A stretch of DNA of 64,000 nucleotides from an uncultured Lentisphaeraceae bacterium (GCA_949288955.1 CASEMS010000010.1:33696-97695); one strand, 5' to 3'. Counted from the first letter of the stretch, positions 12,645 to 50,853 are shown. The notes: generated from the sequence alone by a model not told the origin. A program made the numbers and translations.

Positions 12645-12652
12645 AATGGGTC

Positions 12653-31793: not shown

Positions 31794-31885
<92 letters not shown>

Positions 31886-34724: not shown

Positions 34725-34735
34725 CCCACACGGCA

Positions 34736-34769
34736 CAAAAAAAGGCGCCCATCCGGGCGCCTTTTTTTG
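34736..34769. terminator. Bidirectional rho-independent terminator (between ppiD-like and ugd)
   Basis: caaaaaaaGGCGCCCatccGGGCGCCtttttttg. Confidence 0.8.
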
Positions 34770-34781
34770 TCTCCACCAACC

Positions 34782-36131
34782 TCACTCCCTGCCCACCGCA
34801 AGGACACGAAAGCCCAGCCGTTGGAGGGCGCGGTGGTCAAGGAGATTGCGCGTGTCGAAAAGCAGCGCGGGCTTGCGCATGGAAGCGTGGATGCGCGCCC
34901 AGTCAAGGTCGCGGTAGCACGGCCATTCGGTCATAAGCAGGATGGCATCGGCACCTTCGGCGGCAACGTAAGGATCTGGCTCAAGGGTAACGTGCGGGAG
35001 ATGGGCAAGGTCACGCCGGGCGTTGGGGAGGGCCTTGGGGTCGGTGACGACGAGCTGGGCGTGCTCCTCGGCCAAGAGGTTGGCGACGGTGAGGGAAGGT
35101 GTCTCGCGGGTGTCGCCGGTGTTGGCCTTGAAGGCGAAACCGAAGAGCGCAATCCGCTTGCCGGCGAGGGTGTTGAAGAGGGCCTTGACGGTGCGGGCGA
35201 CGATTCGGCGCTGTTGCTCGGCGTTCATGCGAATGACGCCTTCCCAATAATCCGCCGCCGCATCGAGGCCATAGGAGCGGCAGAGATAGACGAGGTTCAG
35301 CACGTCCTTCTTGAAGCAGGAGCCGCCGAAGCCAGGGCCGGCTTGGAGGAACTTCGGGCCGATGCGGCGGTCGAGGCCGATGACGTGCGCCACCTCCGAG
35401 ATGTCCGCCCCGGTCGCCTCACAGAGGGAGGAGAGGGCGTTCACCGAGGAGATGCGCTGCGCCAGCATCGCGTTGGCCGCCAGCTTGGAGAGTTCGCTCG
35501 ACCAGACATTCGTGGTGATGATACGCCGCCGCGGCACCCACGCCGCGTAAATCTCCACCAACGCCCGCACCGCCGCCCGCCCCCGCGCCGTCTGCGGCCC
35601 GCCGATCAGCACGCGGTCCGGGTTCAGCAGATCGTTGATTGCCGAGCCCTCCGCCAGGAACTCCGGGTTCGAGAGCACCGTGAACGTGTGCTCCGGGTGC
35701 GTGTGCAACACCGCCGCCATCGCGTCCGCCGTCCGAACCGGAAGCGTCGACTTCTCCACCACGATCTTGTCGCCGTTCGCCTCCTGCGCGATCGTCCGCG
35801 CCGAAGACTCCCAGTATTGCAGATCCGAGGCGTAACCCGCCCCCTCGCCAAAGGTCTTCGTCGGTGTGTTCACCCCCACAAAGATGATGTCGCACGCCTT
35901 GATTGCCCCCGCGATGTCCGTCGAGAAGAAGAGATTCTTCCCGCGGCACGCCTTCACCATCTCGTCCAACCCCGGCTCATAGACTGGCAGACTGTCCGAG
36001 TTCCACGCCGCGATCCGCTCCGCGTTGATGTCCACCACCAACACCTTCCTATCCGGGTTCATCTTGGCGATCACCGCCATCGTCGGCCCGCCAATATACC
36101 CCGCCCCAATGCACGCAATGTCCCGCCTCAT
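34782..36131 (-). CDS. ugd: UDP-glucose 6-dehydrogenase
   Basis: MRRDIACIGAGYIGGPT (Rossmann) ... GFGGSCFKKD (catalytic Cys) ... GFAFKANTGDTRE; 449 aa of the long (eukaryote-like) type. High GC, native. Confidence 0.9.
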   Translation of the reverse strand: MRRDIACIGAGYIGGPTMAVIAKMNPDRKVLVVDINAERIAAWNSDSLPVYEPGLDEMVKACRGKNLFFSTDIAGAIKACDIIFVGVNTPTKTFGEGAGYASDLQYWESSARTIAQEANGDKIVVEKSTLPVRTADAMAAVLHTHPEHTFTVLSNPEFLAEGSAINDLLNPDRVLIGGPQTARGRAAVRALVEIYAAWVPRRRIITTNVWSSELSKLAANAMLAQRISSVNALSSLCEATGADISEVAHVIGLDRRIGPKFLQAGPGFGGSCFKKDVLNLVYLCRSYGLDAAADYWEGVIRMNAEQQRRIVARTVKALFNTLAGKRIALFGFAFKANTGDTRETPSLTVANLLAEEHAQLVVTDPKALPNARRDLAHLPHVTLEPDPYVAAEGADAILLMTEWPCYRDLDWARIHASMRKPALLFDTRNLLDHRALQRLGFRVLAVGRE

Positions 36132-36137
36132 AGCGAA

Positions 36138-37643
36138 TTATCGACTCCGACACATCTTAGAGTCCACAAAACACCTCTGAACCATCGCAGTCTCCGGCGG
36201 CATAGACCGCTGCCAGATTCTTGCCCAACGCTCCTTCCGTAACCTTGCCGCATCTAGTGCTAATCCCGTGAACACCAAAGCCCACATAATTCCGCCCATA
36301 CCTGTCATTGAAAACATTGAAAATTCACCAAGATTGGAAATCAAAATTACAAGCAAAACCGCACCCGTCGAAACTGCACCTTGAGATATGAATGAACAAA
36401 AGGCAATTATCAAGAATATAAGAAACAAAACGAAACCCAAGATCCCGCCTTCCTCAAGAATAGCAGTTATCCATACCCCTTTTTCAATCGGTGCGGACAA
36501 AAGATCCGTAATCGAGTTAATTTCTCGGTGTTCCATTCCCTTTGACACTTGGAATCCATTACCAATAACTGGACTCTCACTAAAGTTCTTCAAAGCCTCA
36601 TCCATCAATCCCTGACGCGTTTTAAGAAGTTCTTCCGAGGTAATTTCTAGTTTCGCATCCTTTGCTACATATTTCAGTGCAAATCTCGCAGTAGCCTCTC
36701 GTATCTGTGGACTAATCGAAAAAACAATACCCCCTAAAAGAAAAAGACCAAACAACACTGTCTGCACCTGTACCTTCCAAGTTGTTCGGGTCTGTTTGGA
36801 GAACGAGAAACACATCCCGACAAAACACATTCCTGCCACATAAGTTCCCATCGCAGTTCGGCTTGAAGAATAATAAATTAAAACAGGGATACCCAACAAT
36901 AATACAGAATAAACAATATCCCACCGTTTTAAGACAAATAATAAATCGGCGAAAAGGATAACGCTTGTTGCCGCCAAGAGTGGCCCGAGGGCTTGTGGAC
37001 TATTTGTAATTCCAGTAAACAAGCCCATCGCAGAAACAGGCAATCCCATTTCTATTGCTTGCTGTGCACCAACTTTTGCGATTCCAGGAAATGGGATTAG
37101 GCACAGCGATCCTACAACCCAAAATATAGCAATCGCCAAAACAATATTACGTAACTCTAAGGCCTCTTCCCCTCCCGCAATATAAACCTTTGAAACACTA
37201 AAAAACGCAATCAATGTAATAACAAAAAGGAAGAGTTTTAAATAACTTATCAACGGAGACCATCCCGCACACGAAACAACACCCATATAAACGCAATATC
37301 CGAATAATGTGAAAAATGGCGTCAGCAATGGACTACGTCGAACACTGAGAGCTTTTAAGCCCATAACGACACTCGCCAATAAATAAACAATTCGATTCGC
37401 AAATGAAAATACTACATCTTTCGGTGCGATAAATGAATTCGCAAAAGTCAAAACCCCTGTAAGTAACAGACAAAAGAATATACCCCGCATACTGTTCTTC
37501 ATCAATGCTCCAATGAGCACAAGAAGCAATACAGCAAAACCTGTCCCTCCCGTCGCTTTCATTATTCCGCACAATAAAATTATTGCGAAAAGATACCAAG
37601 CGACCTTTTTAGGTTGATACGCAGTGTTTACCATCTTCATCAT
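36138..37643 (-). CDS. Wzy-like O-antigen/EPS polymerase (O-antigen ligase superfamily, ~11 TM)
   Basis: A polytopic membrane protein with the large periplasmic loop typical of Wzy/WaaL. Low GC (~45%), so the compositional break falls right at the ugd boundary. Confidence 0.55.
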   Translation of the reverse strand: MMKMVNTAYQPKKVAWYLFAIILLCGIMKATGGTGFAVLLLVLIGALMKNSMRGIFFCLLLTGVLTFANSFIAPKDVVFSFANRIVYLLASVVMGLKALSVRRSPLLTPFFTLFGYCVYMGVVSCAGWSPLISYLKLFLFVITLIAFFSVSKVYIAGGEEALELRNIVLAIAIFWVVGSLCLIPFPGIAKVGAQQAIEMGLPVSAMGLFTGITNSPQALGPLLAATSVILFADLLFVLKRWDIVYSVLLLGIPVLIYYSSSRTAMGTYVAGMCFVGMCFSFSKQTRTTWKVQVQTVLFGLFLLGGIVFSISPQIREATARFALKYVAKDAKLEITSEELLKTRQGLMDEALKNFSESPVIGNGFQVSKGMEHREINSITDLLSAPIEKGVWITAILEEGGILGFVLFLIFLIIAFCSFISQGAVSTGAVLLVILISNLGEFSMFSMTGMGGIMWALVFTGLALDAARLRKERWARIWQRSMPPETAMVQRCFVDSKMCRSR

Positions 37644-38701
37644 AGATCCTCTTTTACCTTACACGGCATATATGACAGCCGCTTCTGCACATTAGAAAAA
37701 CAGTTGCGTATAAAACAAATAAAAGCAAAGAACAAACACATACTTCTAGGAAAACTCCATGCAAGACGAATAATCCAATAACTTTCCCAAATGTCTTTAT
37801 TGCCTACATAACGACCTATTAATTGACTTGAGCATATGCGATAAAGATCACGAATATTTTGAATCCGATTCTCTCCCATTGCTAACGGTGCCCGCATGGC
37901 ACTTAAAATCAGATTACGCGTATTTCTTATAATCCACATATTCCACATCATCTCTGAAGACATCACACCATAACGCATAACCATTTCTCGTCGAAATCGT
38001 ATAACTGATAGAAAGTCAACCATATTCTGCCGCTTGTAATTGCGTACAGACGACTGAGCATTAGGCAAATAGTGATACAACCCCTCATGCAGAAGCCCAA
38101 GACGCGTTACTTTTTCAAATAAGTAAAGATTCAATATCATATCATCGAACATCAAGACCGACATCTCTGCAAAACGAGAAAAGTCGTAAGTGTTTTTATA
38201 AAGTTTATCCCAAACAAAGACAGCTCCCTGCCCACAAAACAACCTTGGCCACACATATTCCTTAAAAACTTGTTCGCGTGTTAAAAAAAGTTCTGGCTCC
38301 ATGTATACGCCATGGCACGAATCGCATTGTACAATTTCCAATTTATTCTGAACCGCAAACGTATACAAACGTTCATACATGGTGGATTCAATGAAATCGT
38401 CTGCATCCACGAAACCAAACCAAGAAGAATGAATACGACGTAATCCCATTAAGCGAGCTAAATATCCTCGCTTATTACGTTGATGAAGAACATGTACCCT
38501 TGAGTCTGCCCGAGCTAACACATCAGCGATTTCTCCTGTTCCCTCATCAGAACCATCGTCCACAATCCAAATTTCTATAGCCGGATAAGTCTGACACAAA
38601 ATAGAATTAACCGAACGCGTTAAAAAATGCCCAACGCGATATGCAGGCACTATAACCGAAATTGTCTCTGCCTTTACCTTTTCTGCTCTACACAAACACA
38701 T
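37640..38701 (-). CDS. Glycosyltransferase family 2
   Basis: ISVIVPAYRVGHFLTRSVNSILCQTYPAIEIWIVDDGSDEGTG...FVDADD is the GT-A DxD-type N-terminus. Low GC. Confidence 0.75.
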   Translation of the reverse strand: MCLCRAEKVKAETISVIVPAYRVGHFLTRSVNSILCQTYPAIEIWIVDDGSDEGTGEIADVLARADSRVHVLHQRNKRGYLARLMGLRRIHSSWFGFVDADDFIESTMYERLYTFAVQNKLEIVQCDSCHGVYMEPELFLTREQVFKEYVWPRLFCGQGAVFVWDKLYKNTYDFSRFAEMSVLMFDDMILNLYLFEKVTRLGLLHEGLYHYLPNAQSSVRNYKRQNMVDFLSVIRFRREMVMRYGVMSSEMMWNMWIIRNTRNLILSAMRAPLAMGENRIQNIRDLYRICSSQLIGRYVGNKDIWESYWIIRLAWSFPRSMCLFFAFICFIRNCFSNVQKRLSYMPCKVKEDL

Positions 38702-38702
38702 T

Positions 38703-39800
38703 TCAAGCCTCTTCGATTTGCGCCATTAATACTTGTGCGATGGCACGCCAGGCATATCGGTTCAACGCCAAAGCCCGCCCGCGACGACCGAACTCATCCA
38801 ACTCCGAATCCGAAGCCATCAAAAAACGCCCCAAAGCCTCCGCCAACGCCTTCTCGTCCAACGCGAAGGTCTCGCCACACCCCTTCTCGTGCAGAACCGA
38901 CCAAGGCGTGGCCTCAGAGGCCAAGACCGGCAAACCAAAACCCAACGCGTCCGGGACTACGCCCCCGAAGTTCTCTGTGTAGGACGGCAGAACCAACAAC
39001 CGCGCCAGACGATAGGCCGCCTCCTTGTCCGCACCATACAGCGGCCCCGTGAATGTAACATCCGCCTCTGCGAAGTTTTCCAGCTGCGCCCTCTGCGTCA
39101 CCACCCCCACCTGCTGCGCCAAGCGCTCCAGTTCCCCCATATGCCCGGCCTGATCGGGGCCCACGCACACCACGTGCCAATCCCCGAGCGCATACGACTG
39201 CTTGAGGCGCGCCCACGCCCGAATCAGCAAATCCAACCCCTTCACGGGATAAATGCGCCCCACGAAGAGCACCACGTGCCGCCGCCCCGAAGAATCCGGC
39301 GCCTCCTGCGGTGCGACCGTCCCCAACGGCGCTTCCGCGATCCGATTGCGAAAACCCAGATCCCGAACCCACCGAGCCTCCTGCGCCGACGTCACGTGAA
39401 GCGTCGACACCCCCCGCAGCGCCCACCGCTGATACAACCACCACGGCGCCATCTTCTTCCACCGCTTATGCGCCATCGCCCACGGCGCCAACATCCCGTG
39501 CGGCGACCACACCGCCGGGACTTTATGCAGCTTGGCCCACAGGAAGGCCCGCATGAGCCACGGATCCCACAACGCGTGGATGTGCACCACCTCCGGACGC
39601 CACCCACCCGCCGTCACCCCGCCGATGCCCCCCACGAAAACGCGCACCCGATCACCGACGGGATAGAAATCCTCCCCCCGCCGCCTCACCAAAAGGCGGC
39701 AGTCATGCCCCATCCCAGCCAATTGGCGCAACACCTCCCCGCAAAAGACGGAGGTGCCAGCGGCCCTAGCCATCCCTGTAATCACATGCAAAATCCGCAT
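38703..39800 (-). CDS. Glycosyltransferase family 4 (GT-B)
   Basis: MRILHVITGMARAAGTSV... with the C-terminal ...LVLPSYTENFGGVVPDALGFGLPVLASE (the E-x7-E-like GT4 motif). High-GC segment inside the island. Confidence 0.75.
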   Translation of the reverse strand: MRILHVITGMARAAGTSVFCGEVLRQLAGMGHDCRLLVRRRGEDFYPVGDRVRVFVGGIGGVTAGGWRPEVVHIHALWDPWLMRAFLWAKLHKVPAVWSPHGMLAPWAMAHKRWKKMAPWWLYQRWALRGVSTLHVTSAQEARWVRDLGFRNRIAEAPLGTVAPQEAPDSSGRRHVVLFVGRIYPVKGLDLLIRAWARLKQSYALGDWHVVCVGPDQAGHMGELERLAQQVGVVTQRAQLENFAEADVTFTGPLYGADKEAAYRLARLLVLPSYTENFGGVVPDALGFGLPVLASEATPWSVLHEKGCGETFALDEKALAEALGRFLMASDSELDEFGRRGRALALNRYAWRAIAQVLMAQIEEA

Positions 39801-39883
39801 ACCCCACACTATAGCACATTTTGGTTCCTTTCATCCGAATCATTTGTTATACTCACGACAGTTACCAACGAAGGATTTACGTT

Positions 39884-40519
39884 ATGGCCCTTGCGAAACT
39901 GTTACTGACGATTACTTTATCCACGCTGGCACTCGTTTCCGCCCGAGCAGTCGCCATGCCTTGGACACTTACCAATTTCGACTATCTACAACAAGCCGAC
40001 GAATCGCAACAACCTAGCGAATCGCGCCCAATCTCTGGTGTACAGATTCCCTCTTTCAACCTTTCCCTCTCCGACCTCTCGACTTCGGGCGATATGCAAC
40101 TCGCCTCCCAAACGGTCGTCCTTGAAACGGTTCTTATCGCCATGCGATCAGCCGGGCCAGACAAATTCGTCCCGGAGCGACTCATCCTCGCCCAAAAAGA
40201 TGGCACGCGTATTGCTGCCGCGACTGCCACTCCCACCTCACAAACCGTCACGGTTTACACCAGCCCCACGACGACTACCACTTGCAACGTGTGGGCATAT
40301 ACCTTTAGCGGAAAATTGCCAACGATAAGTACCTCCATCGATTACGATCTCATTTTCGCCACTAGCGATTGGTCTATTTATGAGACCTCCAAGTTTCGCG
40401 ACGACCAAACTATTCTCGCTCGAAACATCGCTGACGAGCCAAACATTGAGAACGCCATCTGGGCCCCCTTCATCCTGACAAGCGGCACATATACACCCCC
40501 CCCCCAGTGGCGCACCTGA
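39884..40519 (+). pseudogene. PEP-CTERM-type secreted protein interrupted by a C10 homopolymer; the +1 frame continues to 40580 encoding PEPTALSLLALGVALTFLRRR
   Basis: A signal peptide MALAKLLLTITLSTLALVSARAVA leads a Thr/Ser-rich body of ~48% GC. The C-run at 40496-40505 is followed by TGA at 40517. With 9 C instead of 10 the ORF reads ...TPPPSGAPEPTALSLLALGVALTFLRRR* (stop 40578-40580), a textbook PEP-CTERM sorting signal. The tail DNA is ~70% GC. Confidence 0.6.
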
Positions 40520-40565
40520 GCCGACGGCCTTGTCCCTCCTCGCCTTGGGGGTGGCCCTCACCTTC

Positions 40566-40626
40566 CTCCGCCGCCGCTGATCCACTTGGATCAGCGGCTC
40601 GTCCGAGGTGGATCAGCCGCCGATCC
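40566..40626. repeat. 22-bp REP-like family, locus 6
   Basis: gctgatccacttggatcagcggctcgtccgaggtggatcagccgccgatccgac. Confidence 0.7.
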
Positions 40627-40646
40627 GACCCGAGCAAGCCGCCATC

Positions 40647-40684
40647 GCAAAAAAGGGCCCCCGACGCTTCCCGCGCCGGGGGCC
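40647..40684 (-). terminator. Rho-independent terminator for the acyltransferase gene (minus strand)
   Basis: On the minus strand, GGCCCCCGgcgcgggaagcgtCGGGGGCC is followed by cttttttg. Confidence 0.55.
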
Positions 40685-40710
40685 ACCTTTCATCATCCAA
40701 GCCTATCCGC

Positions 40711-41772
40711 TCACAGCGTCCCATCGAACACCCGCATCAGCCTCGGCGCGATCCTGCGCCCAACCCGATGTGCCAACACACAAAGCGCCGTGCCAAACAA
40801 GACAAAAATCAGGCATAGCATCGTCAGCACTCCTGTTACACGGGGCAACAATGGTGCCACCGTGTGAAGCAAGGTGGAGGCAAAAAGGAAGTGTCCGGCA
40901 TAGACGAAGAACGCTGATGGAGCCAACCATTCCTGAATCCACCGAGCCGTGAGCAACCGTGTCAGCGGCTTCGCCACCGTCCATAGAAGCGGGATTGTCA
41001 ATACCGTCAACGCCGTCGTCACCACTGGAGGAAGAGTGCCGACCATGGCTTTGACCAGAAACATCCCCACCATCGCGGCCACGGAAATCGGCAAGAAGAC
41101 CATTCGATGCCTCTGAAAGAAGGCTGGGGCGTCAAACGAGCGAGCCGCCATGCCCCCTCCCGTTATGAAGGCAATCGCCGCATACGCCGGATAGGTCATC
41201 TTCAACGCCTCCGCCTGACCAGGGAAAAGTGCCGTCGCACCAACCAGCGCCACACACAACATCGCCAAACCCCACGCCGGGACTTTCCTGAACACCCAGT
41301 CAAGCACCGGCGCGAAGAGTGCGAAGACAAACAAGGTGCGGACGAACCACAGAGGCCCATCGATTGGGTGGATGGTCAAAGAGACGATTTTGTCCAAACA
41401 GCCCGACCATGTGTCCAGCCCAAATTGCGCAACGCGCGTGGCCAAGCGTGGCACCACCGCAGCAAAAGCCAAGTAGACCACCACGAACAGTACATTCCAC
41501 GCCAAATAAGGGACTGCCAGGCGCCGGACACGCGACCAGATCTTCCGCCCATACTGCGCATTCGAATAGTTGCGAAAGAGCAGATAGCCAGACAGGAAGA
41601 ACAACGTCGGCAGAAGCACCGGAGCGAATCCACCACACAGGAAACTCCAAAACCAATATTCCGCGCCCTCATGGCGAACGTATTGGAAAGCCGCCGACGC
41701 ATGTAACAGCACGACGAGCAGATTGCAGAAAAGGCGAACCGAATCGATTTCGGCTGAACGTTTCGTAGTCAT
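40711..41772 (-). CDS. Acyltransferase family 3 (OafA/OatA-like polysaccharide O-acyltransferase), 10 TM
   Basis: EIDSVRLFCNLLVVLLHASAAF... is an integral membrane protein with the Acyl_transf_3 N-terminal signature (R/H in TM1). Confidence 0.65.
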   Translation of the reverse strand: MTTKRSAEIDSVRLFCNLLVVLLHASAAFQYVRHEGAEYWFWSFLCGGFAPVLLPTLFFLSGYLLFRNYSNAQYGRKIWSRVRRLAVPYLAWNVLFVVVYLAFAAVVPRLATRVAQFGLDTWSGCLDKIVSLTIHPIDGPLWFVRTLFVFALFAPVLDWVFRKVPAWGLAMLCVALVGATALFPGQAEALKMTYPAYAAIAFITGGGMAARSFDAPAFFQRHRMVFLPISVAAMVGMFLVKAMVGTLPPVVTTALTVLTIPLLWTVAKPLTRLLTARWIQEWLAPSAFFVYAGHFLFASTLLHTVAPLLPRVTGVLTMLCLIFVLFGTALCVLAHRVGRRIAPRLMRVFDGTL

Positions 41773-41773
41773 T

Positions 41774-43027
41774 TCACTCCTCATAATCGTTTTGCAGAAC
41801 CTCTATCTCCTGCACCAAACGCAACAAGGCCTCCGCCGCACACTCGGCCGTCCATTCGCCGATGGGGACGGACGGGATGGGCGCACGGAGTTTTTGGGCG
41901 AGGGTCTCGACGTCGCCGGCGCGGAAGAGGTTGCTCGGCGGCAGGAGCGTTGCGCCGGCGCCGGATTCCACCGTCGCCAAGACGCGCATACCCTCCTCCA
42001 AAGCCTCGCTCACCACCGCGCCCCACCCCTCGTAGCCGTTGCTGGGGAGCACGTAGACATCGTGCGCGCGCATGAGCTCGCGCACCTGCGCCACGGGCAC
42101 GAAGTTATGAAAGCGGATAGTGTCGCAGCCCTTGGCGAGTTTGCGCAGGTGCGTCTCCTCCGGGCCATGGCCATAGAGATCCAATAAAATCCCCTCGCGC
42201 TTCAAATCCGGGCGCGGGCGGCACGCCCGCGCCAAATCCCCCACGCGCTTCAAATCAAGCATCCGCCCGACCCAAAGCGCCGCGGGCGGATGCTTGATTG
42301 GAAGCGCGTGAGCCCCCCCCTCCCCCCCACGGGAGGCGCCCCGCCCCGGCGCCACGAAATAGCCCCACATCCGCAATTTCGCGAACACCCCCTTGGGGCG
42401 TACCCGCCCCCATCGCTCCCGCGGAATCTGCGCGAACCCATGTTGCTTGGCGAAAGCAACCGCCTCCGCGTCGAGCACCCCCTCCGCAATCGCCTGCCCC
42501 AACGGCACCACCACCCCACCCGGCCGCGACTCGAACACCACCTTCGGCGCGCGGAAAAAGCACCGCCAATCCCCCGCGAAAAGCCCCAACACCCGCGCCA
42601 TGTCCCGCGCCGCGTGCACCCCCATCGGCAGGCAGAGGAACCCCGGCGCGCGCACGCACCGCGCGAACCGCCGCGCCATCCGGAAGTATGAGGGCACCAA
42701 AAGCCGCAGGAACCCCAACGGCGGCTTAAACCACCGCTCCGCCGCATAGAACGTCGCCTTCCCCGCCGCGTTGCGCCGCTCGAAAAGCCCCAACGCTCGG
42801 AGCCCCGACAGCACACAATCCGCCTCGGCTAACGCCGCGTCCTCCATCGTCCCCTGCACGCACCACGTCGGCACCGCGTCCCCGCCCCACCCCATCCGCG
42901 TACGCTCCCCATGCGCCGCCTCCGTGTGGACATAGCGGTAATTCGCCTCCCCCACCCGCCGTACCAACGCCTTCGCCAACGGCACCTGATGCGGCGACAC
43001 CACATTCGTCAACAACGCAATCTTCAT
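41774..43027 (-). CDS. Glycosyltransferase family 4 (GT-B)
   Basis: MKIALLTNVVSPHQVPLAKAL... and the C-terminal ...VYVLPSNGYEGWGAVVSEALEEGMRVLAT. High GC. Confidence 0.7.
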   Translation of the reverse strand: MKIALLTNVVSPHQVPLAKALVRRVGEANYRYVHTEAAHGERTRMGWGGDAVPTWCVQGTMEDAALAEADCVLSGLRALGLFERRNAAGKATFYAAERWFKPPLGFLRLLVPSYFRMARRFARCVRAPGFLCLPMGVHAARDMARVLGLFAGDWRCFFRAPKVVFESRPGGVVVPLGQAIAEGVLDAEAVAFAKQHGFAQIPRERWGRVRPKGVFAKLRMWGYFVAPGRGASRGGEGGAHALPIKHPPAALWVGRMLDLKRVGDLARACRPRPDLKREGILLDLYGHGPEETHLRKLAKGCDTIRFHNFVPVAQVRELMRAHDVYVLPSNGYEGWGAVVSEALEEGMRVLATVESGAGATLLPPSNLFRAGDVETLAQKLRAPIPSVPIGEWTAECAAEALLRLVQEIEVLQNDYEE

Positions 43028-43111
43028 ACGAGCCCGCACCGTTCCTTTCCGCTTGACTTCGCACCAAGACTCGACAACTGTAGAATGTCAATAGATGTAA
43101 AACCGACTCCA

Positions 43112-43618
43112 TCAGCGATAACGCTTTCGTACCTCCGCAGGCACGCCTGCAAGTAAACAATACGACGTGGTAATTGACTTCGTAACAACCGCGCCCGCCG
43201 CCACCAATGTCTTCTCCGGCAACGACACGCCTGGCAAAATCACGCTACGCGCCCCTAACCAACACCCATCACCAATCGAGACCGAGGCAGAGGTTCCTTT
43301 GCCCCCAATATGTTCCCCTTCGACATCCACCGAATGGCTACCGGTGAACATCATAACTGATGGGCCCAAATCAACATGATTCCCAATGCGAATTTCCCCA
43401 CTCCCTGCGGCGGACAAATAACAACCAGGCCCAATCCACACATCATCGCCAATCGTTATTTCTCCTGTCCCATTGAAAATTACGGAAGCCGAAATCCGAA
43501 CGCCCTGCCCAATGGTTACCCCACACCAAGCCAATAACTTCGTTCGAAATCCAAAACAACGAGTCTCTGGCAACATCCTATTCAATAGATTATAAAAAAA
43601 CAACCGATTTGTTCTCAC
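43112..43618 (-). CDS. Hexapeptide-repeat (LbH) sugar O-acetyltransferase
   Basis: Multiple [LIV]GxxxxI hexapeptide repeats (ITIGDDVWIGPGCYLSAAGSGEIRIGNHVDLGPSVMM...). Low GC. Confidence 0.65.
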   Translation of the reverse strand: MRTNRLFFYNLLNRMLPETRCFGFRTKLLAWCGVTIGQGVRISASVIFNGTGEITIGDDVWIGPGCYLSAAGSGEIRIGNHVDLGPSVMMFTGSHSVDVEGEHIGGKGTSASVSIGDGCWLGARSVILPGVSLPEKTLVAAGAVVTKSITTSYCLLAGVPAEVRKRYR

Positions 43619-43632
43619 GTCGTCTCTTTCTC

Positions 43633-44589
43633 TTATTTCCCTATTACCTGAATGACATTCAAACGTTTCTCCTCTCCGGCAATTGGAATCAACTCATGCC
43701 CAGCGCCAACCTCTCCGACATATCGCCCCGGCACAGGAACTTTCTCTTTTGCCCCCATCTGTTTCCACATATATTCCACATCAACATGCCCTGCATCAAT
43801 TGCCCAAAAACCTGCTTTGCACAAATCATAGGCTAAAACCGTCGCTGTCGCCCCCAATGCCAACAAAATTAGTCGGCCCTGGGCATATTTCTTTGTTGTC
43901 TCCAATATTTCGTCATAAAATGTATAGGCGTTGAAAGGAGGGCACCAAAGACGCATAGTTGATTTCGCGCCATCAAATAAATCATTTCCAACACCAAGAC
44001 GTGAAAAACGCCCTTCAACGATGAGGAGATCGCGCCCTTTCACCAACTCTTTCCATAGGTCAAAAACAGTCCCATCAGTGACGCCACATGCAGGACACTC
44101 TTGAGATGGTCGTGAAATACAAGCATCCCCATAAATCGCATGAGAACAAAACAACGGCAAACATTTCTCCCCTGTTCTAAACAACGTGTCTCGCCAAAAA
44201 CGTCGAGCCTGCAAATTGAAATGATCCATTGACCCAAAAATATTAGGGATTGCGCAAAGGCCATCATTCACCGAATCCCCAATGATTTCACGCAATCGCT
44301 TCCCGAGCTCTAAGTTCACACATTGTGAACCCATTCGCTTCCCAAGCATCATTCTGAATTCCCCATCCCCATATCGCCAGATACTCTTTCGCTCATGGAT
44401 AATCTTCTGTAATGTATCTGCGATCCCCAACACATTCGGAGCATTATCCCGAAATTTCTGCCCAGTCTCGTAATAAAAATTACGCTCTAACAAATCCAAC
44501 TCATTACGGATTTGCTCTATCTTCTTCCATAAACAAATAGAACGCTTAATTCGTCCAAGAAGATGTCGAACTCTCCAATATAACGTCAT
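43633..44589 (-). CDS. Putative GT-D-fold glycosyltransferase (DUF1792-like)
   Basis: WRYGDGEFRMM... and the overall ~320-aa architecture resemble DUF1792/GT-D proteins from capsule loci; the assignment is from memory and tentative. Confidence 0.35.
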   Translation of the reverse strand: MTLYWRVRHLLGRIKRSICLWKKIEQIRNELDLLERNFYYETGQKFRDNAPNVLGIADTLQKIIHERKSIWRYGDGEFRMMLGKRMGSQCVNLELGKRLREIIGDSVNDGLCAIPNIFGSMDHFNLQARRFWRDTLFRTGEKCLPLFCSHAIYGDACISRPSQECPACGVTDGTVFDLWKELVKGRDLLIVEGRFSRLGVGNDLFDGAKSTMRLWCPPFNAYTFYDEILETTKKYAQGRLILLALGATATVLAYDLCKAGFWAIDAGHVDVEYMWKQMGAKEKVPVPGRYVGEVGAGHELIPIAGEEKRLNVIQVIGK

Positions 44590-44607
44590 AAACTACTCCT
44601 CTATATC

Positions 44608-45747
44608 TCAATTCGCATGTTTTAGCCGCATTGCCGCTTCATATCGCGAAACCACAGAATCAATTGTGTAAGGCTCCCAAGATTGTCGGGAGGGCACACT
44701 TGGATTGTTGATAATGTCTTGCATCGCTTCTGCAAGACAATGTGCATCCCCTAGCGGAACAAGTTTCCCCCAAAGTCCATTTTTGAGAATTTCTGGTGGT
44801 CCATAAGGACAATTGGTCGAAACGACAGGAATCCCGCTTGCCAAAGCCTCAACAAGCACGACGGAAAACGATTCTACCGTAGAAGAACAAACAAATCCGG
44901 TCGCCGCTTTAAGTTCTGCTGGCAAATTCTCATAGAATCCAGCTAATGAAACGACATCCGTTAATGCTTCTCGTGCAAGAAATGCTTTATACTCTCCCGG
45001 GACTTCCTCACGCCCAAAAATAATTAATTGGACACGTTGGGATTGATTGAGAATCTTGATTGCTTCAAAAAGAGTGAAAAAACCCTTACTCAAAACAAAC
45101 GCCCCCGCAGCAACAAACGTGGGACATTTCCGTTCTCTCAACCAAGGATGCGTAGGAAGCTTTTTCAGCTTCTCAAAGAAAAGATCGTCAACCACTGGAT
45201 TATATACGACAGAAATACGATTACGCGGGATATCCCCTATTTTTGCCATAGCATTGGCAACGCCCTTGCTAACAGCCATGAAATGCACATAAGGTGCCTG
45301 AAACAATTTCATTTTCACCCATTGCGCCGACCATCGTCGTGGAGGTTTGATAGACGTCTTCCCATCAAATTCGACATCGATTCCTCCGTTGTGTTCAACA
45401 TAATATATAGACGCACGAGAAAAGAAACTTATCATTCGCGCCAACGACAATGCATAAAAATAATTTGACGACATCGTCACGACCGCTCGGGCATCTGTTG
45501 TAGATAGATACTTAACAAGCGGAAAGACATTCATTCGTGCCGACCGATAAGGGAGACAAACCCAATGCACACCTTTTGGCACATCAAATGGTTTGCCTTG
45601 TTCACCGCTACGTAATAAATCCCAATGCACCTCAGAAACTACTAAATCCACGTCATATCCATGCGCCACAAAACCACGTGCCAACATAGCTGCCACATAT
45701 TGTGCGCCTCGCGCAAATAAATCTTGAATAAGAATGGCAATCTTCAT
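44608..45747 (-). CDS. Glycosyltransferase family 4 (GT-B)
   Basis: MKIAILIQDLFARGAQYVAAMLARGF... and the C-terminal ...FVCSSTVESFSVVLVEALASGIPVVST. Confidence 0.7.
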   Translation of the reverse strand: MKIAILIQDLFARGAQYVAAMLARGFVAHGYDVDLVVSEVHWDLLRSGEQGKPFDVPKGVHWVCLPYRSARMNVFPLVKYLSTTDARAVVTMSSNYFYALSLARMISFFSRASIYYVEHNGGIDVEFDGKTSIKPPRRWSAQWVKMKLFQAPYVHFMAVSKGVANAMAKIGDIPRNRISVVYNPVVDDLFFEKLKKLPTHPWLRERKCPTFVAAGAFVLSKGFFTLFEAIKILNQSQRVQLIIFGREEVPGEYKAFLAREALTDVVSLAGFYENLPAELKAATGFVCSSTVESFSVVLVEALASGIPVVSTNCPYGPPEILKNGLWGKLVPLGDAHCLAEAMQDIINNPSVPSRQSWEPYTIDSVVSRYEAAMRLKHAN

Positions 45748-46784
45748 AATCTTCTTCTTGTGAGCATTTGTTTCAAAGCCCCTATAGCAGATAAAGCATG
45801 ACAAAGAACCATGTCAAACGCAGGAATTCGCATCAATCGGACAAGCCACGCCCGAACACTCCATTTGGGAAGAGGCAAAGGCACGTCTCGCAGGAACATC
45901 CGCACCTCATGCCCAATAGCTCCGGCCCCACCGCGATAACAGGCATGCATAGTAACTTCCGTCACTAAGCAATGCACCAAAACCTCCCGAAGCCTCTGAA
46001 CATAAACCAGCCATCCAGACACACAAGACAAATAACGCTGATAAACAAGTCGGAAGGCCCTAAGTTGATCATGGAGTAATCGGATGCCCTGTCTTTTCGT
46101 CGCTTGCCCAGCATGAATCCGATAATAATATGCACACTGCCTTATCATCAACATACCATGTAGGCGCCCAGCCAAACCCGCGAAAAAGCACGTATCCTCG
46201 CACATTGAAATCCCAATGGGAAATCGAAGAGCCCCAACGGCATCCGCCCGTATTAGCCCACCCAAAATCATTCCACCGACAATCATTTCATCAATAAAGA
46301 AACGGATGGTTTCCATTTGTGTCAGATATAGCGGCTGTGCGCTTCCCTGATAATACCCTCCCCCCATCAAACAATAACCCCACTTGACGAACTCAATCGA
46401 CACGTTTTGGTTTTGCCTCAACATCTCATACACTTGACCAAGCGCCTGCTTGGCATAACAATCATCCCCGTCGAGAAAGCCGACCCATTGGCCGCGAAGG
46501 CAATCGAGTGCACGGTTACGGGCGGCAGAGACGCCGGCGTTGGGTTGATGGGTGATACGGAAGCGAGGATCGCGGCGGGCGTAGGCATCAAGGATAAGGT
46601 CGGAGCCGTCCTTGCTGCCGTCGTCGGTGCAGAGACATTCCCAGTCAGCAAAGGTCTGCGCTAAAACGGAATCGAGGCATTCGCCCAAATAGGGTATCAC
46701 GTTGTAGACAGGCACAATCACAGAGAAGAAGGGCAATTGCCGTTCTTTTTGGGTTGGCGTTACCGCTTGTGCCTGAGGTTTCAT
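45744..46784 (-). CDS. Glycosyltransferase family 2
   Basis: FSVIVPVYNVIPYLGECLDSVLAQTFADWECLCTDDGSKDGS...FLDGDD. Confidence 0.75.
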   Translation of the reverse strand: MKPQAQAVTPTQKERQLPFFSVIVPVYNVIPYLGECLDSVLAQTFADWECLCTDDGSKDGSDLILDAYARRDPRFRITHQPNAGVSAARNRALDCLRGQWVGFLDGDDCYAKQALGQVYEMLRQNQNVSIEFVKWGYCLMGGGYYQGSAQPLYLTQMETIRFFIDEMIVGGMILGGLIRADAVGALRFPIGISMCEDTCFFAGLAGRLHGMLMIRQCAYYYRIHAGQATKRQGIRLLHDQLRAFRLVYQRYLSCVSGWLVYVQRLREVLVHCLVTEVTMHACYRGGAGAIGHEVRMFLRDVPLPLPKWSVRAWLVRLMRIPAFDMVLCHALSAIGALKQMLTRRRL

Positions 46785-46826
46785 AACGCGCTTAGTGTAG
46801 CAAAAACGTAGCAATCACACTTTGCC

Positions 46827-48773
46827 TTATTCCGTCGTGTTCATCATTTCGTTCGGTTCTTCGTTCGTTTTCCTCGATGACAGAATAGTGTTGAACCGTT
46901 GAACAAGCGAAGTTCGAATTGTGTTTATCGTCGTCTCAACAAGCGCGATACGATTGGGTTGTTTCCACTGTCCCTTCTGATGATAGATCGCCACTCGATT
47001 TTGTTTCATTTTCTCAAGAATGGTCTTCCACGAATCCGCCTCTTGGATCAATTTCGGCAACCACTCCTGCCAATTCTGAACTCTTACGAAATACCGTTCT
47101 CGTACCATCTCTTGAAAAACAAGCGAGTCTTCCACTGATGCCTTTAAAAGTAAAGCCGCAAATTGCGCACAGGCATCGTCATCCAATAGAACTACCGGCC
47201 GATTGCGAATCTTCTCGCTCATTAAGAATTGGCACAGGCCTATCAGATTTTCCTTACACAGACAGTCGGTTATCTGTTCCTTGACTTTCGTTTCATACTG
47301 CTTTTGCGCAAGATTTTCAACAAGTTCTAGATTGTGTTGATACCAATCATCCTTCTCTTCCGAGATACTAAATCCAGCGAAACTGTCGTTCCACGTACCA
47401 TCTTCGGAGAAGACTAGTTGCTCCCTCACACTCGAAACATAATCTTCAAATCGCCTCGCCAAATGTTGCAAATGATCTTCCCACGCGGGAAGGAAATGCG
47501 CCAAAAGAGAGGGTCTTATCAACTTCAATGCGTCGTACCGCCGTTTATCGTATTTTCTTAAAAGTTCGAACACAAGCCTGATTTCCGCGGAGTCCGTAAT
47601 TTTGTGTTCCTGCAAAGCAATCAAGACTTTCCTCCGCGCCTTACGGGTTTCGCCATCATCCTTTGCCCACGCTCTAAACAACGGTTCCCAAGCGTAATCC
47701 TGACGATAGTAAACAGACTGTCGTAGTTCCTCGCGAATCGTTTCCGCATGGAAGCTACAACCATCAATCACTGTTGTCCACGACTCTGAACTCAGCAGCC
47801 AATTGAACGAAAGAAACGATCCAAACATCTCAAAGTCAAACTGCGTGCAAATGGAAAGCAAATCCCCCCAAGTAAACTTCTTGTCAGAAGAGGTGGCCTC
47901 CTTTCCATCTCCCCCAATTGGGGCTATGTTTTTCAATATTCCGAGTTGCGTCGAATACGCAAAGAGAAGAAAGAGGCATGTGAAATGAAGTTCCAAGTGT
48001 TCTGGTTGAAAGATTTCCGCCCCCAATGCGCTCTTCCACTGTTTCAATTGCCAAAGTGCCGCCTTAAACGCGCGATAATTGAAATGCTTCAGTTGATCGT
48101 AAATCTCATTCATGAGCAAAGTACTAAACGCCAACACACGTTTGTCTTCTTGAAAAGACAGAGCATTATCACCCATCAAAATAGGGATCACGTCTTCCGG
48201 TTCGCGAACCAAGGTGTAGGTCTTGCCTACAAACTTCTCTTTGAGCGATGTGTACTCCTGATCTACAAACAATTTCTCCTCATTGCCAATGTAGACCACA
48301 GGTTTTTGCGTCTGCTCGACAAACGCCTCCAAATAGCCCATTCGTTGGCGAAGTGGCAATTCACACCGCTCAAGGTCATCAAATACAACCGCTTGTTTAC
48401 GCGCTTTTCCCTGTTCGCGTTCCTTAAAAAAGGCGCTTATCCCACTCAACGCCCCCGTCAAGTCAGCCCCACATCCCTTGATTAATTCGGCAATCCCATT
48501 TCCCAAACGAAGTGCCTTGAACATCCATGTACGCGAGACATCGCCACAGAACGCCTCAACAATGCGTCGCTCAATTTCTTCAACAGACGCGACACCGTTC
48601 AATGAGATATACAGGACTTCTCCACCCTCTGCTTTTACTTGTTTGATAAGTTCCTTTATCAGATAGGTTTTTCCACATCCCCACGGGCCTGTCAGCAAGA
48701 CGGGAAAATCCGCAGAGGCTTCCATCATGTAAGTTTTTAACGCTTCTTTGACCGCTTGATTGCTTGCGTTCAT
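46827..48773 (-). CDS. KAP-family-like P-loop NTPase (648 aa), putative defence/abortive-infection component
   Basis: Walker A VLLTGPWGCGKTYL and Walker B AVVFDDLERC (the hhhhDDLER form typical of KAP NTPases), with a long alpha-helical C-terminal region. Low GC; it lies last in the ATPase-DUF4276-NTPase gene order. Confidence 0.45.
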   Translation of the reverse strand: MNASNQAVKEALKTYMMEASADFPVLLTGPWGCGKTYLIKELIKQVKAEGGEVLYISLNGVASVEEIERRIVEAFCGDVSRTWMFKALRLGNGIAELIKGCGADLTGALSGISAFFKEREQGKARKQAVVFDDLERCELPLRQRMGYLEAFVEQTQKPVVYIGNEEKLFVDQEYTSLKEKFVGKTYTLVREPEDVIPILMGDNALSFQEDKRVLAFSTLLMNEIYDQLKHFNYRAFKAALWQLKQWKSALGAEIFQPEHLELHFTCLFLLFAYSTQLGILKNIAPIGGDGKEATSSDKKFTWGDLLSICTQFDFEMFGSFLSFNWLLSSESWTTVIDGCSFHAETIREELRQSVYYRQDYAWEPLFRAWAKDDGETRKARRKVLIALQEHKITDSAEIRLVFELLRKYDKRRYDALKLIRPSLLAHFLPAWEDHLQHLARRFEDYVSSVREQLVFSEDGTWNDSFAGFSISEEKDDWYQHNLELVENLAQKQYETKVKEQITDCLCKENLIGLCQFLMSEKIRNRPVVLLDDDACAQFAALLLKASVEDSLVFQEMVRERYFVRVQNWQEWLPKLIQEADSWKTILEKMKQNRVAIYHQKGQWKQPNRIALVETTINTIRTSLVQRFNTILSSRKTNEEPNEMMNTTE

Positions 48774-48783
48774 TGCTTAATGA

Positions 48784-49581
48784 TTATGGCGTCGTGGTGG
48801 TCTGTTTATTTAAGGGCTCGGTGTTGAAGAAAAGCGTATACAGGAAGGTGATGAGGGGTGCCAAGGCGGGGGCTTGCCAATTCCAGAGGGTGTCGTTGAA
48901 GAAGGCTCGGTTGATACCGTTGTGGTCCCAAGTACGGACACCGAAGGCAGCCGCATATTCTGTCATCATAGACTTGCGCGTGGTGGGGTTGAAGTTGTGC
49001 GCTTTAAGGCACGCGTCGAATCCGGCCCAGCAGTCCATGAAGAAGGTTTCGTGATTGGGGTCTACACGATTGACACAATCGCGCATCAGGGTTTCCAGGT
49101 CGCCTTCGCGTTGGTTGTCCGGAAGGAGGAAGATGTGTTCTCGAGGGAAGATGCCCAGTTCTGCATACCTCACATCATTCCGCACCTCTTTCCGAGCCTT
49201 TTCCTGCAACTTTCCAATAAGCCAGCTCGGGCGCTCCGTGATCCCGCCATGTGTACGCCTATCCGTGGACGTTCCGGGTGGGTCTTGAGAGTCCGCATCG
49301 ACGATGAGCGCGGCGGCAAAGGTGTCGGCATCCAGAAGTTCCACTGGACGAAGGAGGTTTTTGGCTTGTCTTTCCACATTGGCGACCCCGTCCGTCCAAT
49401 AGAGACTCACATCAAGGTCAGCCTCATGGCACGACAATGTCTCTCCTTGCGACAGGCTCACGTTACCAGACACCAAAGAAGCCCATTTCTTTGTGGACGC
49501 GAAAGCAAAGCGACGCACAAGGAGAACATACAGGAAGTAGACGTCCTTGCTACCTTCGAGAACAATGTGGACACGTCTCAT
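48784..49581 (-). CDS. DUF4276 (RloB-like) family protein, partner of the upstream AAA_21 ATPase
   Basis: MRRVHIVLEGSKDVYFL... AALIVDADSQD ... GIFPREHIFLLPDNQREGDLETLM resembles the DUF4276 family pattern. The start overlaps the ATPase stop by ATGA. Confidence 0.45.
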   Translation of the reverse strand: MRRVHIVLEGSKDVYFLYVLLVRRFAFASTKKWASLVSGNVSLSQGETLSCHEADLDVSLYWTDGVANVERQAKNLLRPVELLDADTFAAALIVDADSQDPPGTSTDRRTHGGITERPSWLIGKLQEKARKEVRNDVRYAELGIFPREHIFLLPDNQREGDLETLMRDCVNRVDPNHETFFMDCWAGFDACLKAHNFNPTTRKSMMTEYAAAFGVRTWDHNGINRAFFNDTLWNWQAPALAPLITFLYTLFFNTEPLNKQTTTTP

Positions 49582-50636
49582 CGCAGTTCCACCCCCAGGT
49601 CGAGCTGTGCATCGGTGTCGGCGCCGGAAAGGGTCTCGGCGACGACCGTGCCGTCCCTGCGGCGGCGAAGGCCGATGAAGGTGAGGTCTTCCGTGCTGTT
49701 GTCGCCAATGGGCATGGCGATTTGCCGAAGCATCTCCACATTGTGCGTGGTCGCTATGATTTGGACATCGTGCTCGGTCGCAAACCGTGCCAAGCTTTCC
49801 CAAACCACCTGCATTGCCGAATGGTGGAGCCCATTCTCAATCTCATCGATGCAGAGCAACCCGCCACCTTGGCAAGCATTAGCCACCACGAAAAGTCGGA
49901 TGACGTGCAGCATACCTTCACCCAAAACGGGGACGGGCAGGAGCGTTGGTCCACCGAGATCGACCAACACCTCTTGTCCGGCGAGCGCCAAGCGTTGGAC
50001 ACGCCCATCAATGCGCTTGAGCGCCTCAATAAGCGGACCCTCCTGCTTGTTTTTGATGAGGTCAGCAAGATCCGTCCCGCCACCTCTTTCTCGTGCTCCA
50101 AGATAGGCACACCGCCACGTTTCCCGACTGGTTCCCCCAGAGAGCGCCAAGATTCTCCCGCCCTTATCTACCAACGTGCTCAAAATACCCTGTTCAGTCG
50201 GCTCCTCGCCTCTTGGGCCAATTGCATAGGTCTGTTCCAACGCAGGATAGGCCTCGACATTGGTGACAGTCTGCGTGCCGTCCGCCCCGGGAAGTTCGTA
50301 ACGCCTGAATCCGCCATCTTTCGATTCCCGCGTGCGCAACACATAACGCCGCTCTTCCTGTCCGTCAAACTGTCCGACAATCTGAACCGGCAACGTGATG
50401 TCTTGGTCGTGAAACAGCGCATGAAGCTCCCGCGCCGTCTCCGGGGGCATCTCCCGATTGGCCGACACACGCTCGGGCATATCCGGCATTCTCATACCTG
50501 AGAGCAGGAAGATGGCCTCAAGCACCGAAGATTTCCCGATGTTGTTCTTCCCCGCCAAGACATTGAAACGCGTCAACCGAGGCAACGACAATCGGCCCAA
50601 GCCGCGAAAATGCTCAATCGTGATGGCTCGCAACAT
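49578..50636 (-). CDS. AAA_21-type ABC ATPase (RloA/OLD-N-like), putative defence ATPase
   Basis: MLRAITIEHFRGLGRLSL...NVLAGKNNIGKSSVLEAI (Walker A) ... LLCIDEIENGLH (Walker B) ... IIATTHN (H-loop). Confidence 0.6.
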   Translation of the reverse strand: MLRAITIEHFRGLGRLSLPRLTRFNVLAGKNNIGKSSVLEAIFLLSGMRMPDMPERVSANREMPPETARELHALFHDQDITLPVQIVGQFDGQEERRYVLRTRESKDGGFRRYELPGADGTQTVTNVEAYPALEQTYAIGPRGEEPTEQGILSTLVDKGGRILALSGGTSRETWRCAYLGARERGGGTDLADLIKNKQEGPLIEALKRIDGRVQRLALAGQEVLVDLGGPTLLPVPVLGEGMLHVIRLFVVANACQGGGLLCIDEIENGLHHSAMQVVWESLARFATEHDVQIIATTHNVEMLRQIAMPIGDNSTEDLTFIGLRRRRDGTVVAETLSGADTDAQLDLGVELR

Positions 50637-50797
50637 AACCAAAATCCTGTCATCCTCGCATAAACGTCGCCATCCCTCCGCGCACCTCACCCAATAAGGC
50701 ACTCCCGCGAGATTGCAACGCTCGTGTTCGATTCCTCGTACAATATCTTCATTATAGCAGAAATAGGCGTTTCGTTCCCTGCCCCTGCGCTGCGTGG

Positions 50798-50833
50798 GGA
50801 AGAAAAAAGAAAGGCCCCCGAGGAGTCGGGGGC
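50798..50833 (-). terminator. Rho-independent terminator of the giant gene (minus strand); also the right boundary of the low-GC island
   Basis: On the minus strand, GGCCCCCGACTCCTCGGGGGCC is followed by tttcttttttc. Confidence 0.7.
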
Positions 50834-50853
50834 CTTGGGTGGCGGGAGTGGGA

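Follow-up and report, generated by a model that had tools for sequence, protein, structure and literature searches.

A probable surface-glycan locus of conserved scaffold genes and exchanged low-GC cassettes in an uncultured Lentisphaeraceae bacterium

The DNA analyzed here is a stretch of 64,000 nucleotides (nt) from an uncultured Lentisphaeraceae bacterium (GCA_949288955.1, CASEMS010000010.1:33696-97695), hereafter called the window, with positions counted from its first nucleotide. It contains a run of fourteen genes of very uneven base composition, which is probably best explained as a surface-glycan locus (34782-46784), made up of a shared scaffold and exchanged low-GC cassettes, together with a separate group of defence genes (46827-50636). 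The scaffold consists of the UDP-glucose 6-dehydrogenase gene ugd, the glycosyltransferase genes GT4a and GT4b and a gene for a PEP-CTERM surface protein, and its homologues occur in the same order in three lineages or more. The low-GC cassettes are a Wzy_C-superfamily gene with GT2a (cassette 1) and the genes LbH, GT-D, GT4c and GT2b (cassette 2). An earlier note on this DNA had proposed repeated gene replacement in a single island inserted between a native ugd and a giant gene. The replacement was borne out, as cassettes differ or have been exchanged between three lineages (A, to which the window belongs, B and C) and gene content is not the same in all relatives, while the single insertion was not, as ugd is itself the last gene of the locus.

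Genes of the glycan locus

The following genes, with families assigned by Pfam (for the PEP-CTERM gene, through NCBIfam matches of its homologues), make up the locus.

34782..36131, minus strand: ugd, UDP-glucose 6-dehydrogenase, 449 amino acids (PF03721/PF00984/PF03720)
36138..37643, minus strand: Wzy_C-superfamily polytopic membrane protein of O-antigen polymerase/ligase type, 501 amino acids; low-GC cassette 1
37640..38701, minus strand: GT2a, GT2 glycosyltransferase, 353 amino acids (PF00535, E 8e-26); low-GC cassette 1
38703..39800, minus strand: GT4a, GT4 glycosyltransferase, 365 amino acids; scaffold gene
39884..40580, plus strand: PEP-CTERM surface-protein gene with signal peptide, hypervariable middle and tail PEPTALSLLALGVALTFLRRR; the open reading frame (ORF) stops at 40519
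40711..41772, minus strand: AT3, acyltransferase-3 membrane O-acyltransferase, 353 amino acids (PF01757, E 1e-30)
41774..43027, minus strand: GT4b, GT4 glycosyltransferase, 417 amino acids; scaffold gene
43112..43618, minus strand: LbH, left-handed beta-helix WcaF-like O-acetyltransferase, 168 amino acids (Hexapep); low-GC cassette 2
43633..44589, minus strand: GT-D, glycosyltransferase of the GT-D fold, 318 amino acids (PF08759, E 2.5e-64); low-GC cassette 2
44608..45747, minus strand: GT4c, GT4 glycosyltransferase, 379 amino acids; low-GC cassette 2
45744..46784, minus strand: GT2b, GT2 glycosyltransferase, 346 amino acids (PF00535, E 9e-33); low-GC cassette 2

The glycan genes thus form a co-oriented cluster with gaps of -4 to 87 nt, in which glycosyltransferases, a sugar-nucleotide gene and modification genes are found together. 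Every gene call of the earlier note was confirmed by Pfam or PADLOC, and so was, by the gene coordinates, its count of thirteen out of fourteen genes on the minus strand. The identity of the sole plus-strand gene as a PEP-CTERM gene had been missed.

When the ten glycan-locus proteins were compared with NCBIfam, only generic matches below threshold and no specific enzyme names were obtained. Among these, LbH matched the WcaF family under the family cut-off, and GT-D matched the SP_1767 family with 234 bits against a cut-off of 290.75. A homologue search with the Wzy_C protein gave 570 matches in a family of about 500 amino acids, one of them named as O-antigen ligase family (Kiritimatiellia), while a look-up of the exact 501-amino-acid sequence returned no entry, the gene caller's product being 500 amino acids long. 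A 26-member alignment of this family has a mean column identity of 62% and many invariant residues. The AlphaFold (AF2) model, with a pLDDT of 77.6 and a pTM of 0.81, has as its best fold match the ligase WaaL (7tpg; probability 1.0, TM 0.45/0.53), followed by the SEDS proteins FtsW and RodA; a sequence search of the PDB with the 26-member profile gave no matches. In one of the related contigs described below (L102), a gene for a MatE-like putative flippase of 518 amino acids adjoins the Wzy_C homologue, an arrangement that fits a Wzx/Wzy-type pathway.

Base composition

GC content was followed in 500-bp windows along the whole 64 kb, and the GC content of third codon positions (GC3) was computed for each gene and compared with a host reference set of 27 window genes, chosen by their strong GC3 signal, for which it is 0.926 ± 0.050. 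Outside the atypical region the GC content is 0.66-0.77 (full background range 0.65-0.77). Between approximately 36000 and 50750 it swings between about 0.39 and 0.70, which confirms the compositional mosaic described in the earlier note. From 0.65-0.70 over ugd and the left flank it falls to 0.39-0.42 at 36250-38750, rises to 0.63-0.67 at 38750-39750, and continues with 0.53-0.62 at 39750-41750, 0.64-0.70 at 41750-43000, 0.43-0.50 at 43250-48750 and 0.54-0.58 at 48750-50750, before returning to 0.67-0.74 from 50750. The switches are sharp and located at gene ends, e.g. between the start of GT2a (38701) and the stop of GT4a (38703), with 1 nt between them.

The same pattern is seen in the individual genes, where GC3 ranges from 0.36 to 0.84 at 36138-50636, against 0.93 in the host. 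In cassette 1 it is 0.388 for the Wzy_C gene (z -10.7) and 0.356 for GT2a (z -11.3), and in cassette 2 it is 0.491, 0.417, 0.368 and 0.516 for LbH, GT-D, GT4c and GT2b, respectively. The six cassette genes and the defence gene PDC-S49 (0.502) are thereby 8-11 standard deviations under the host mean. Intermediate values were found for GT4a (0.776, z -3.0), AT3 (0.681), GT4b (0.839, z -1.7) and two further defence genes, for a DUF3226 protein (0.639) and an AbiLi-like ATPase (0.666); ugd has 0.856 (z -1.4) and the PEP-CTERM gene 0.594. At least five composition classes are present among the genes of the region. By GC3, GT4a, AT3 and GT4b, which had been called host-like, are intermediate and not truly host-like.

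Comparison with related lineages

The host is an uncultured gut bacterium of the PVC group (Planctomycetes, Verrucomicrobia and Chlamydiae), since the flanking peptidyl-prolyl isomerase (PPIase) matches metagenome-assembled genomes (MAGs) labelled Kiritimatiellia, Lentisphaeraceae and Candidatus Spyradenecus at 54-72% identity. Its GC content is about 71%, and its species is outside the GTDB representatives. These representatives were considered for the locus comparison and set aside as too distant, the best PPIase being 72% identical and only the pair of a hypothetical gene and PPIase syntenic. Where a lineage with 73% identity in PPIase was examined, the genes after PPIase are those for ClpP, SerRS, Pdf and NusA, and the glycan locus is absent. 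Related contigs were instead reached via homologues of PPIase and PDC-S49.

Seven contigs from different samples (L090, L091 and L094-L098) are 97-100% identical to the window and were taken as conspecific. Together they show the same order, i.e. giant gene, AbiLi-like, DUF3226, PDC-S49, GT2b, GT4c, GT-D, LbH, GT4b, AT3, PEP-CTERM, GT4a, GT2a, Wzy_C, ugd and PPIase. Gene content is thus invariant within the species as sampled, and the serotype switching suggested in the earlier note was not seen at this level. When the window is compared with L090, L094, L095 and L096, the identity is 100% in most of the low-GC genes, 98.9% in PPIase, 96.3% in GT4b and 90-96% in the giant gene; the differences in GT4b are concentrated at 41700-43000.

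Lineage B (L092 and L011) is approximately 88% identical in nucleotide sequence in the hypothetical gene, PPIase (88.8%) and ugd (88.5%, or 95% in amino acids). Here PPIase is followed by sulfatase, ugd, another AT3, Wzy_C, GT4a (72% identical), PEP-CTERM and GT4b, the last with 83-86% nucleotide and 84% amino acid identity to the window. GT2a is missing, and the different acyltransferase and a 45%-identical Wzy_C with a GC3 of 0.66 replace Wzy_C and GT2a between ugd and GT4a. Upstream of GT4b, cassette 2 is replaced in L011 by an MBOAT gene and a gene of 303 amino acids (432-3252 in that contig), and in L092 by an unrelated ATPase of the AAA_21 type, encoded on the opposite strand (12114-12872), although these two contigs are 98% identical outside this junction. 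With the window's cassette 2 included, the junction upstream of GT4b is three-way variable.

Lineage C (L099 and L100) has the order GH123, ugd, Wzy_C, GT2a, GT4a, PEP-CTERM, AT3 and GT4b. Amino acid identities to the window are 91% for ugd (83% in nucleotides), 80% for Wzy_C, 67% for GT2a, 77.5% for GT4a and 92% for GT4b, and the same dip to 41-44% GC is found inside DNA of 65-74% GC. The AT3-GT4b segment is 96% identical to that of the window in nucleotides (40503-42274), with 100% over 41300-41700. Since ugd is only 83% and the stretch from ugd to GT4a only 76% identical between the same lineages, the AT3-GT4b tract is a product of recent recombination between lineages. A short contig (L103), whose source sample has lineage C in it as well, carries GT2b, GT4c, GT-D and LbH in the same order, with 62-71% amino acid identity and 40-47% GC.

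Two further contigs bear on the origin of the cassettes. In L102, of about 58% GC, whose GT4b is 55% identical to that of the window in amino acids, the Wzy_C and GT-D homologues have a GC3 of 0.71-0.74, and therefore low GC is not intrinsic to these gene families. A comparable cluster is present in L104, which represents an organism of 42-45% GC. Based on these two observations, an origin of the cassettes in AT-rich genomes is plausible.

An inverted repeat of 28 nt (96% complementary, with a spacer of 13 nt) was also observed at 42242-42310, in a conserved protein segment of the GT4b coding sequence. The repeat occurs in L090, L091 and L011 as well, and the GT4b gene of L092 is broken near the same point.

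The PEP-CTERM gene and homopolymer tracts

In three lineages the PEP-CTERM gene occupies the same place within the locus, in agreement with the association of PEP-CTERM proteins with exopolysaccharide (EPS) loci that is already known (Haft et al. 2006, PMC1569441). Its homologues in the relatives likewise have a variable middle between a signal peptide and the tail VPEPTALSLLALGVALTFLRRR, and four out of five exceed the NCBIfam TIGR02595 cut-off (17.8-19.9 bits against 16). No literature on PEP-CTERM proteins in Kiritimatiellota was found.

Within the species two alleles of the gene occur, which are 36% identical between flanks that are 98% identical (39836-40464 in the window against 8148-8759 in L091), and the L091 allele is closer to that of the sister lineage B (48%). 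The signal-peptide region and the tail are conserved across the alleles compared (L091, L092, L011 and L099). Such a pattern of conservation would be as expected from allele replacement by recombination.

In the window copy, a tract of ten C residues at 40496-40505 shifts the frame, so that the sorting tail at 40515-40580, the only PEP-CTERM tail in the window, is out of frame. This tract is also the sole G/C homopolymer of at least nine residues in the window. Two conspecific assemblies carry nine C residues instead, and in these the protein is intact. The C10/C9 difference could be due either to slipped-strand phase variation or to a sequencing error in the homopolymer.

A second frame change linked to a homopolymer was observed in the same locus, namely in lineage C, where AT3 is frameshifted at a tract of ten G residues in two samples (around 1120 in L099 and 1064 in L100, equivalent to approximately 41161 in the window). 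At that point the window AT3 reads GGGAGGGGG, with the G tract interrupted and the frame kept.

Boundaries and transcription units

Three terminator-like structures were identified in and around the region.

34735..34770, no strand assigned: inverted repeat of 16 nt, perfect and with A7/T7 tails, in the gap where PPIase and ugd converge
40656..40684, minus strand: terminator-like hairpin of 12 pairs (11 of them G-C) with a T-run, after the AT3 stop
50811..50836, minus strand: strong terminator-like hairpin with a T-run, just past the stop of the giant gene (50854)

The first of these looks like a bidirectional terminator that forms the left end of the locus after ugd. As the hairpin at 40656-40684 follows AT3, the minus-strand genes are split into at least two predicted transcription units. 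The operon-like character claimed in the earlier note agrees with the tight spacing and overlaps (6, -4 and 1 nt at the ugd end and 1, 87, 14, 18, -4, 42, 10 and -4 nt toward the giant gene), but a single operon does not, this second minus-strand terminator having been overlooked. The earlier note had also placed a terminator that closes the island near 50798-50833; a strong hairpin is present there, but it is assigned to the giant gene and not to an island operon, because it directly follows the giant gene stop. It would thereby end the giant gene and mark the right limit of the region of atypical GC.

Signs of a mobile element were sought at several levels. No integrase or transposase was found among the window genes by Pfam and PADLOC, and no att-like repeats or insertion sequence ends flanking the region were detected in a repeat search. 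An Rfam scan of the whole window identified only a tRNA, i.e. tRNA-Ser(GCT) at 31794-31885, 3 kb to the left of the locus. It is not an integration site for the locus, because two conserved host genes separate the two. A scan for sigma-70 promoters gave 17 sites against 10.6±3.3 expected, and is uninformative for the phylum of the host.

In Pfam scans of the large ORFs of the 64-kb window, there was no Polysacc_synt or MatE-type match that would indicate a Wzx flippase, and no initiating phosphoglycosyl transferase of the WbaP/WecA type, Wzz, Wzc or Wza. The earlier note was thus right that no flippase, initiating transferase or chain-length regulator is visible. The initiating transferase and the chain-length and export proteins may be encoded elsewhere in the genome. 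An exosortase (EpsH/Xrt) was not matched among the window ORFs either (Pfam).

Neighboring genes

Between the glycan locus and the giant gene there are three genes of predicted phage-defence type.

46827..48773, minus strand: PDC-S49, KAP/STAND-like P-loop NTPase, 648 amino acids (PADLOC PDLC05031; Pfam KAP_NTPase)
48784..49581, minus strand: DUF3226 protein, partner of the ATPase, 265 amino acids (Pfam PF11536, 30.4 bits against a cut-off of 27)
49578..50636, minus strand: ABC/OLD-type AAA_21 ATPase, AbiLi-like/PDC-M38A-like, 352 amino acids (PADLOC; Pfam AAA_21)

PDC-S49 matches its PADLOC profile over the full length (E 8.9e-67, residues 1-594 against 1-590 of 624), the PDC systems being candidates in the PADLOC library. 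The ATPase resembles the AbiL and PDC-M38 systems in that it matches both AbiLi (E 2.1e-42, residues 23-371 against 1-337 of 340) and PDC-M38A (E 4e-34) over the full length and in that its gene is overlapped by 4 nt by that of a small partner. Unlike in these systems, the partner matches PDC-M38B only, and weakly (E 2.7e-5), with no AbiLii match at E<=0.01, in addition to the Pfam family DUF3226. Two plus-strand ORFs over the defence genes (48874-50106 and 49437-50501) had no family matches and were rejected as genes. The defence trio that the earlier note counted as part of the glycan island is thus confirmed by Pfam and PADLOC as far as the genes are concerned, but these form a separate unit beside the locus, with a putative defence activity. 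The position of defence genes next to variable surface loci is unremarkable.

The giant gene itself (50854-57690) encodes 2278 amino acids with one F5/8 type C domain. Between conspecific strains, two of its segments (53656-54009 and 56671-57399) cannot be aligned, at an overall identity of 90-96%. It is thereby a second variable surface-protein gene, which adjoins the locus.

About 10 kb from the locus, at 23451-26348, genes for a polysaccharide pyruvyl transferase, an FrhB-like Fe-S protein and a hexapeptide transferase were found, all with the GC content of the host. Homologous pairs sit within the Wzy_C/GT-D clusters of L102 and L104, and for this reason the genes at 23451-26348 may act on the same glycan as the locus.

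Alternative explanations

Several observations weigh against a glycan locus with exchanged cassettes. The Wzy_C protein scores 25.8 bits in Pfam, under the gathering threshold of 31.7, and its modelled fold would fit a polymerase, a ligase and an O-oligosaccharyltransferase alike, which cannot be distinguished by it. The pathway in the window is incomplete, without Wzx, an initiating transferase or export genes. The conspecific assemblies belong to two series of accessions and are perhaps only partly independent of one another, and L103 is tied to lineage C by the shared sample only. No donor was identified, as the best homologues from beyond lineages A-C reach only 45-51% (Wzy_C) and 41-48% (GT-D) identity, and the named matches of the donor search (Oscillospiraceae, Flavobacterium and Bacillus) only 41-44%. 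Furthermore, the low-GC genes of lineage C have diverged by 25-30% in nucleotides from those of the window and still have a GC3 of 0.38-0.46. Such equal AT-richness of the A and C cassettes is not predicted by a single ancient acquisition with subsequent amelioration, and could reflect either repeated import of related cassettes or selection for low GC.

The last point also speaks for the chief rival explanation, which we consider unlikely. According to this, the low-GC genes are old residents whose AT-richness is maintained by selection, e.g. for slow translation of membrane or low-abundance enzymes, instead of being the result of layered transfer. In its favor, lineages A and C have retained a GC3 of 0.36-0.46 in Wzy_C, GT2a, GT4c and GT-D in hosts of about 0.9 despite the divergence between them, and Reeves et al. 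state that the low GC of wzx and wzy 'needs explanation' (PMC3715488). Yet the L102 homologues of the same families have a GC3 of 0.71-0.74, lineage B has neither GT2a nor any of cassette 2 and its Wzy_C is at 0.66, and the membrane protein is no more AT-rich than the soluble LbH, GT-D and GT4c. Moreover, strains with differences elsewhere share cassettes of 100% identity, a sign of recent spread. That 36138-50836 was inserted as a single mobile genomic island between ugd and the giant gene has been largely refuted and is very improbable. It would agree with the sharp composition at both boundaries, the defence genes at one end and the housekeeping genes that follow PPIase, without a glycan locus, in the relative with a 73%-identical PPIase. 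There is, however, no integrase, transposase, flanking direct repeat (or att site) or adjacent tRNA; GT4a, the PEP-CTERM gene and GT4b are collinear with ugd as a scaffold in three lineages; ugd is co-oriented with the cluster at 6 nt from the Wzy_C gene; and the composition classes number at least five. A chimera of high-GC and low-GC organisms, created in assembly or binning, could be expected from an apparently metagenome-derived source with GC switches at gene boundaries. As seven separate contigs, assembled from different samples, share the same junctions, it can for practical purposes be ruled out, the more so since two diverged lineages show the same high/low pattern and genes overlap across the GC junctions.

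Two further possibilities concern the PEP-CTERM protein. A WaaL/PglL-like Wzy_C protein might transfer the glycan onto it, so that the locus would serve an exosortase-linked protein O-glycosylation and not a free polysaccharide or the O-chain of a lipopolysaccharide. The kept position of the PEP-CTERM gene in three lineages, the Ser/Thr-rich variable part of the window allele, the unusually high conservation of the Wzy_C family, its best fold match to a ligase and the lack of a Wzx or Wzz gene nearby can all be cited for this, while it is countered by the frequent occurrence of PEP-CTERM genes beside EPS loci without such a role (PMC1569441), by a fold that does not separate the three enzyme types and by the lack of an exosortase in the window. 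On balance we judge it quite unlikely. More speculatively, and to our mind just as doubtful, the whole could function as a contingency locus, in which a variable PEP-CTERM protein with 36%-identical alleles and a homopolymer on/off switch shortly before its sorting signal would be the acceptor of the glycan via Wzy_C, again as an exosortase-linked protein O-glycosylation, and the AT-rich cassettes would spread by gene-specific sweeps.

Discussion

A surface-glycan locus with exchanged cassettes, which we thus prefer, might operate as follows. UDP-glucuronic acid (UDP-GlcA) would be supplied by ugd, and the six glycosyltransferases (two GT2, three GT4 and one GT-D) would assemble a lipid-linked oligosaccharide. 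The glycan would presumably be O-acylated by two acyltransferases, AT3 in the membrane and the WcaF-like LbH in the cytoplasm, and be polymerized or ligated by the Wzy_C protein at the outer face of the inner membrane, with initiation, flipping and export probably encoded outside the window. The cassettes have probably been gained or exchanged via homologous recombination through the conserved scaffold, and may ultimately derive from genomes of about 40-45% GC. The defence group is separate, flanked by the glycan locus on one side and by the terminator of the giant surface-protein gene on the other.

In Salmonella, the O-antigen clusters consist of segments of differing GC, all under the genome average, which Reeves and colleagues credit to lateral transfer and assembly over time (PMC3715488). 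The locus described here matches this long-known pattern of segmented GC, in an unusual host and with an extreme GC3 contrast. As in the rfb clusters of Salmonella enterica, polymerase-type and glycosyltransferase genes are the most AT-rich, the sugar-nucleotide gene by the housekeeping flank is nearest to the host in composition, and cassettes vary from one related lineage to another, recombining through the conserved genes that flank them. Unlike those clusters, it belongs to a PVC-group gut bacterium of about 71% GC, with GC3 values of 0.36 against 0.93, and neither the locus nor the rest of the window contains wzx, an initiating transferase or wzz/wzc. Its Wzy_C is of a fairly conserved family (45-51% identity) and not serotype-unique, and content does not vary among the sampled conspecific assemblies.

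With the PEP-CTERM/exosortase systems of EPS loci (PMC1569441) the locus shares a PEP-CTERM gene embedded among EPS-type glycosyltransferases, with a signal peptide and a diverse middle, in an organism of the PVC group, where PEP-CTERM proteins are abundant. It differs from them in that no exosortase (EpsH/Xrt) or PrsK/PrsR/PrsT is present in the window, the sorting tail of the window copy is out of frame and the conspecific alleles are only 36% identical.

The most interesting leads are the hypervariable PEP-CTERM gene and the C10/C9 difference in it, the frameshift at G10 in the lineage C AT3 and the cassettes that are 100% identical among otherwise differing strains. In practical terms the analysis is of modest value, in that glycan loci and defence genes of gut MAGs can be better annotated. 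For the biology of these bacteria, it adds an uncultured, very GC-rich gut lineage of the PVC group, without known serotype genetics, to those in which surface-glycan loci are GC-segmented and recombine, and in this lineage the contigs of three lineages and their strains make scaffold, cassettes and recombination tracts directly readable. The persistence of a GC3 of about 0.4 in genomes of about 0.93, in two lineages that have diverged by 25-30%, makes the locus a test case for repeated import versus selection.

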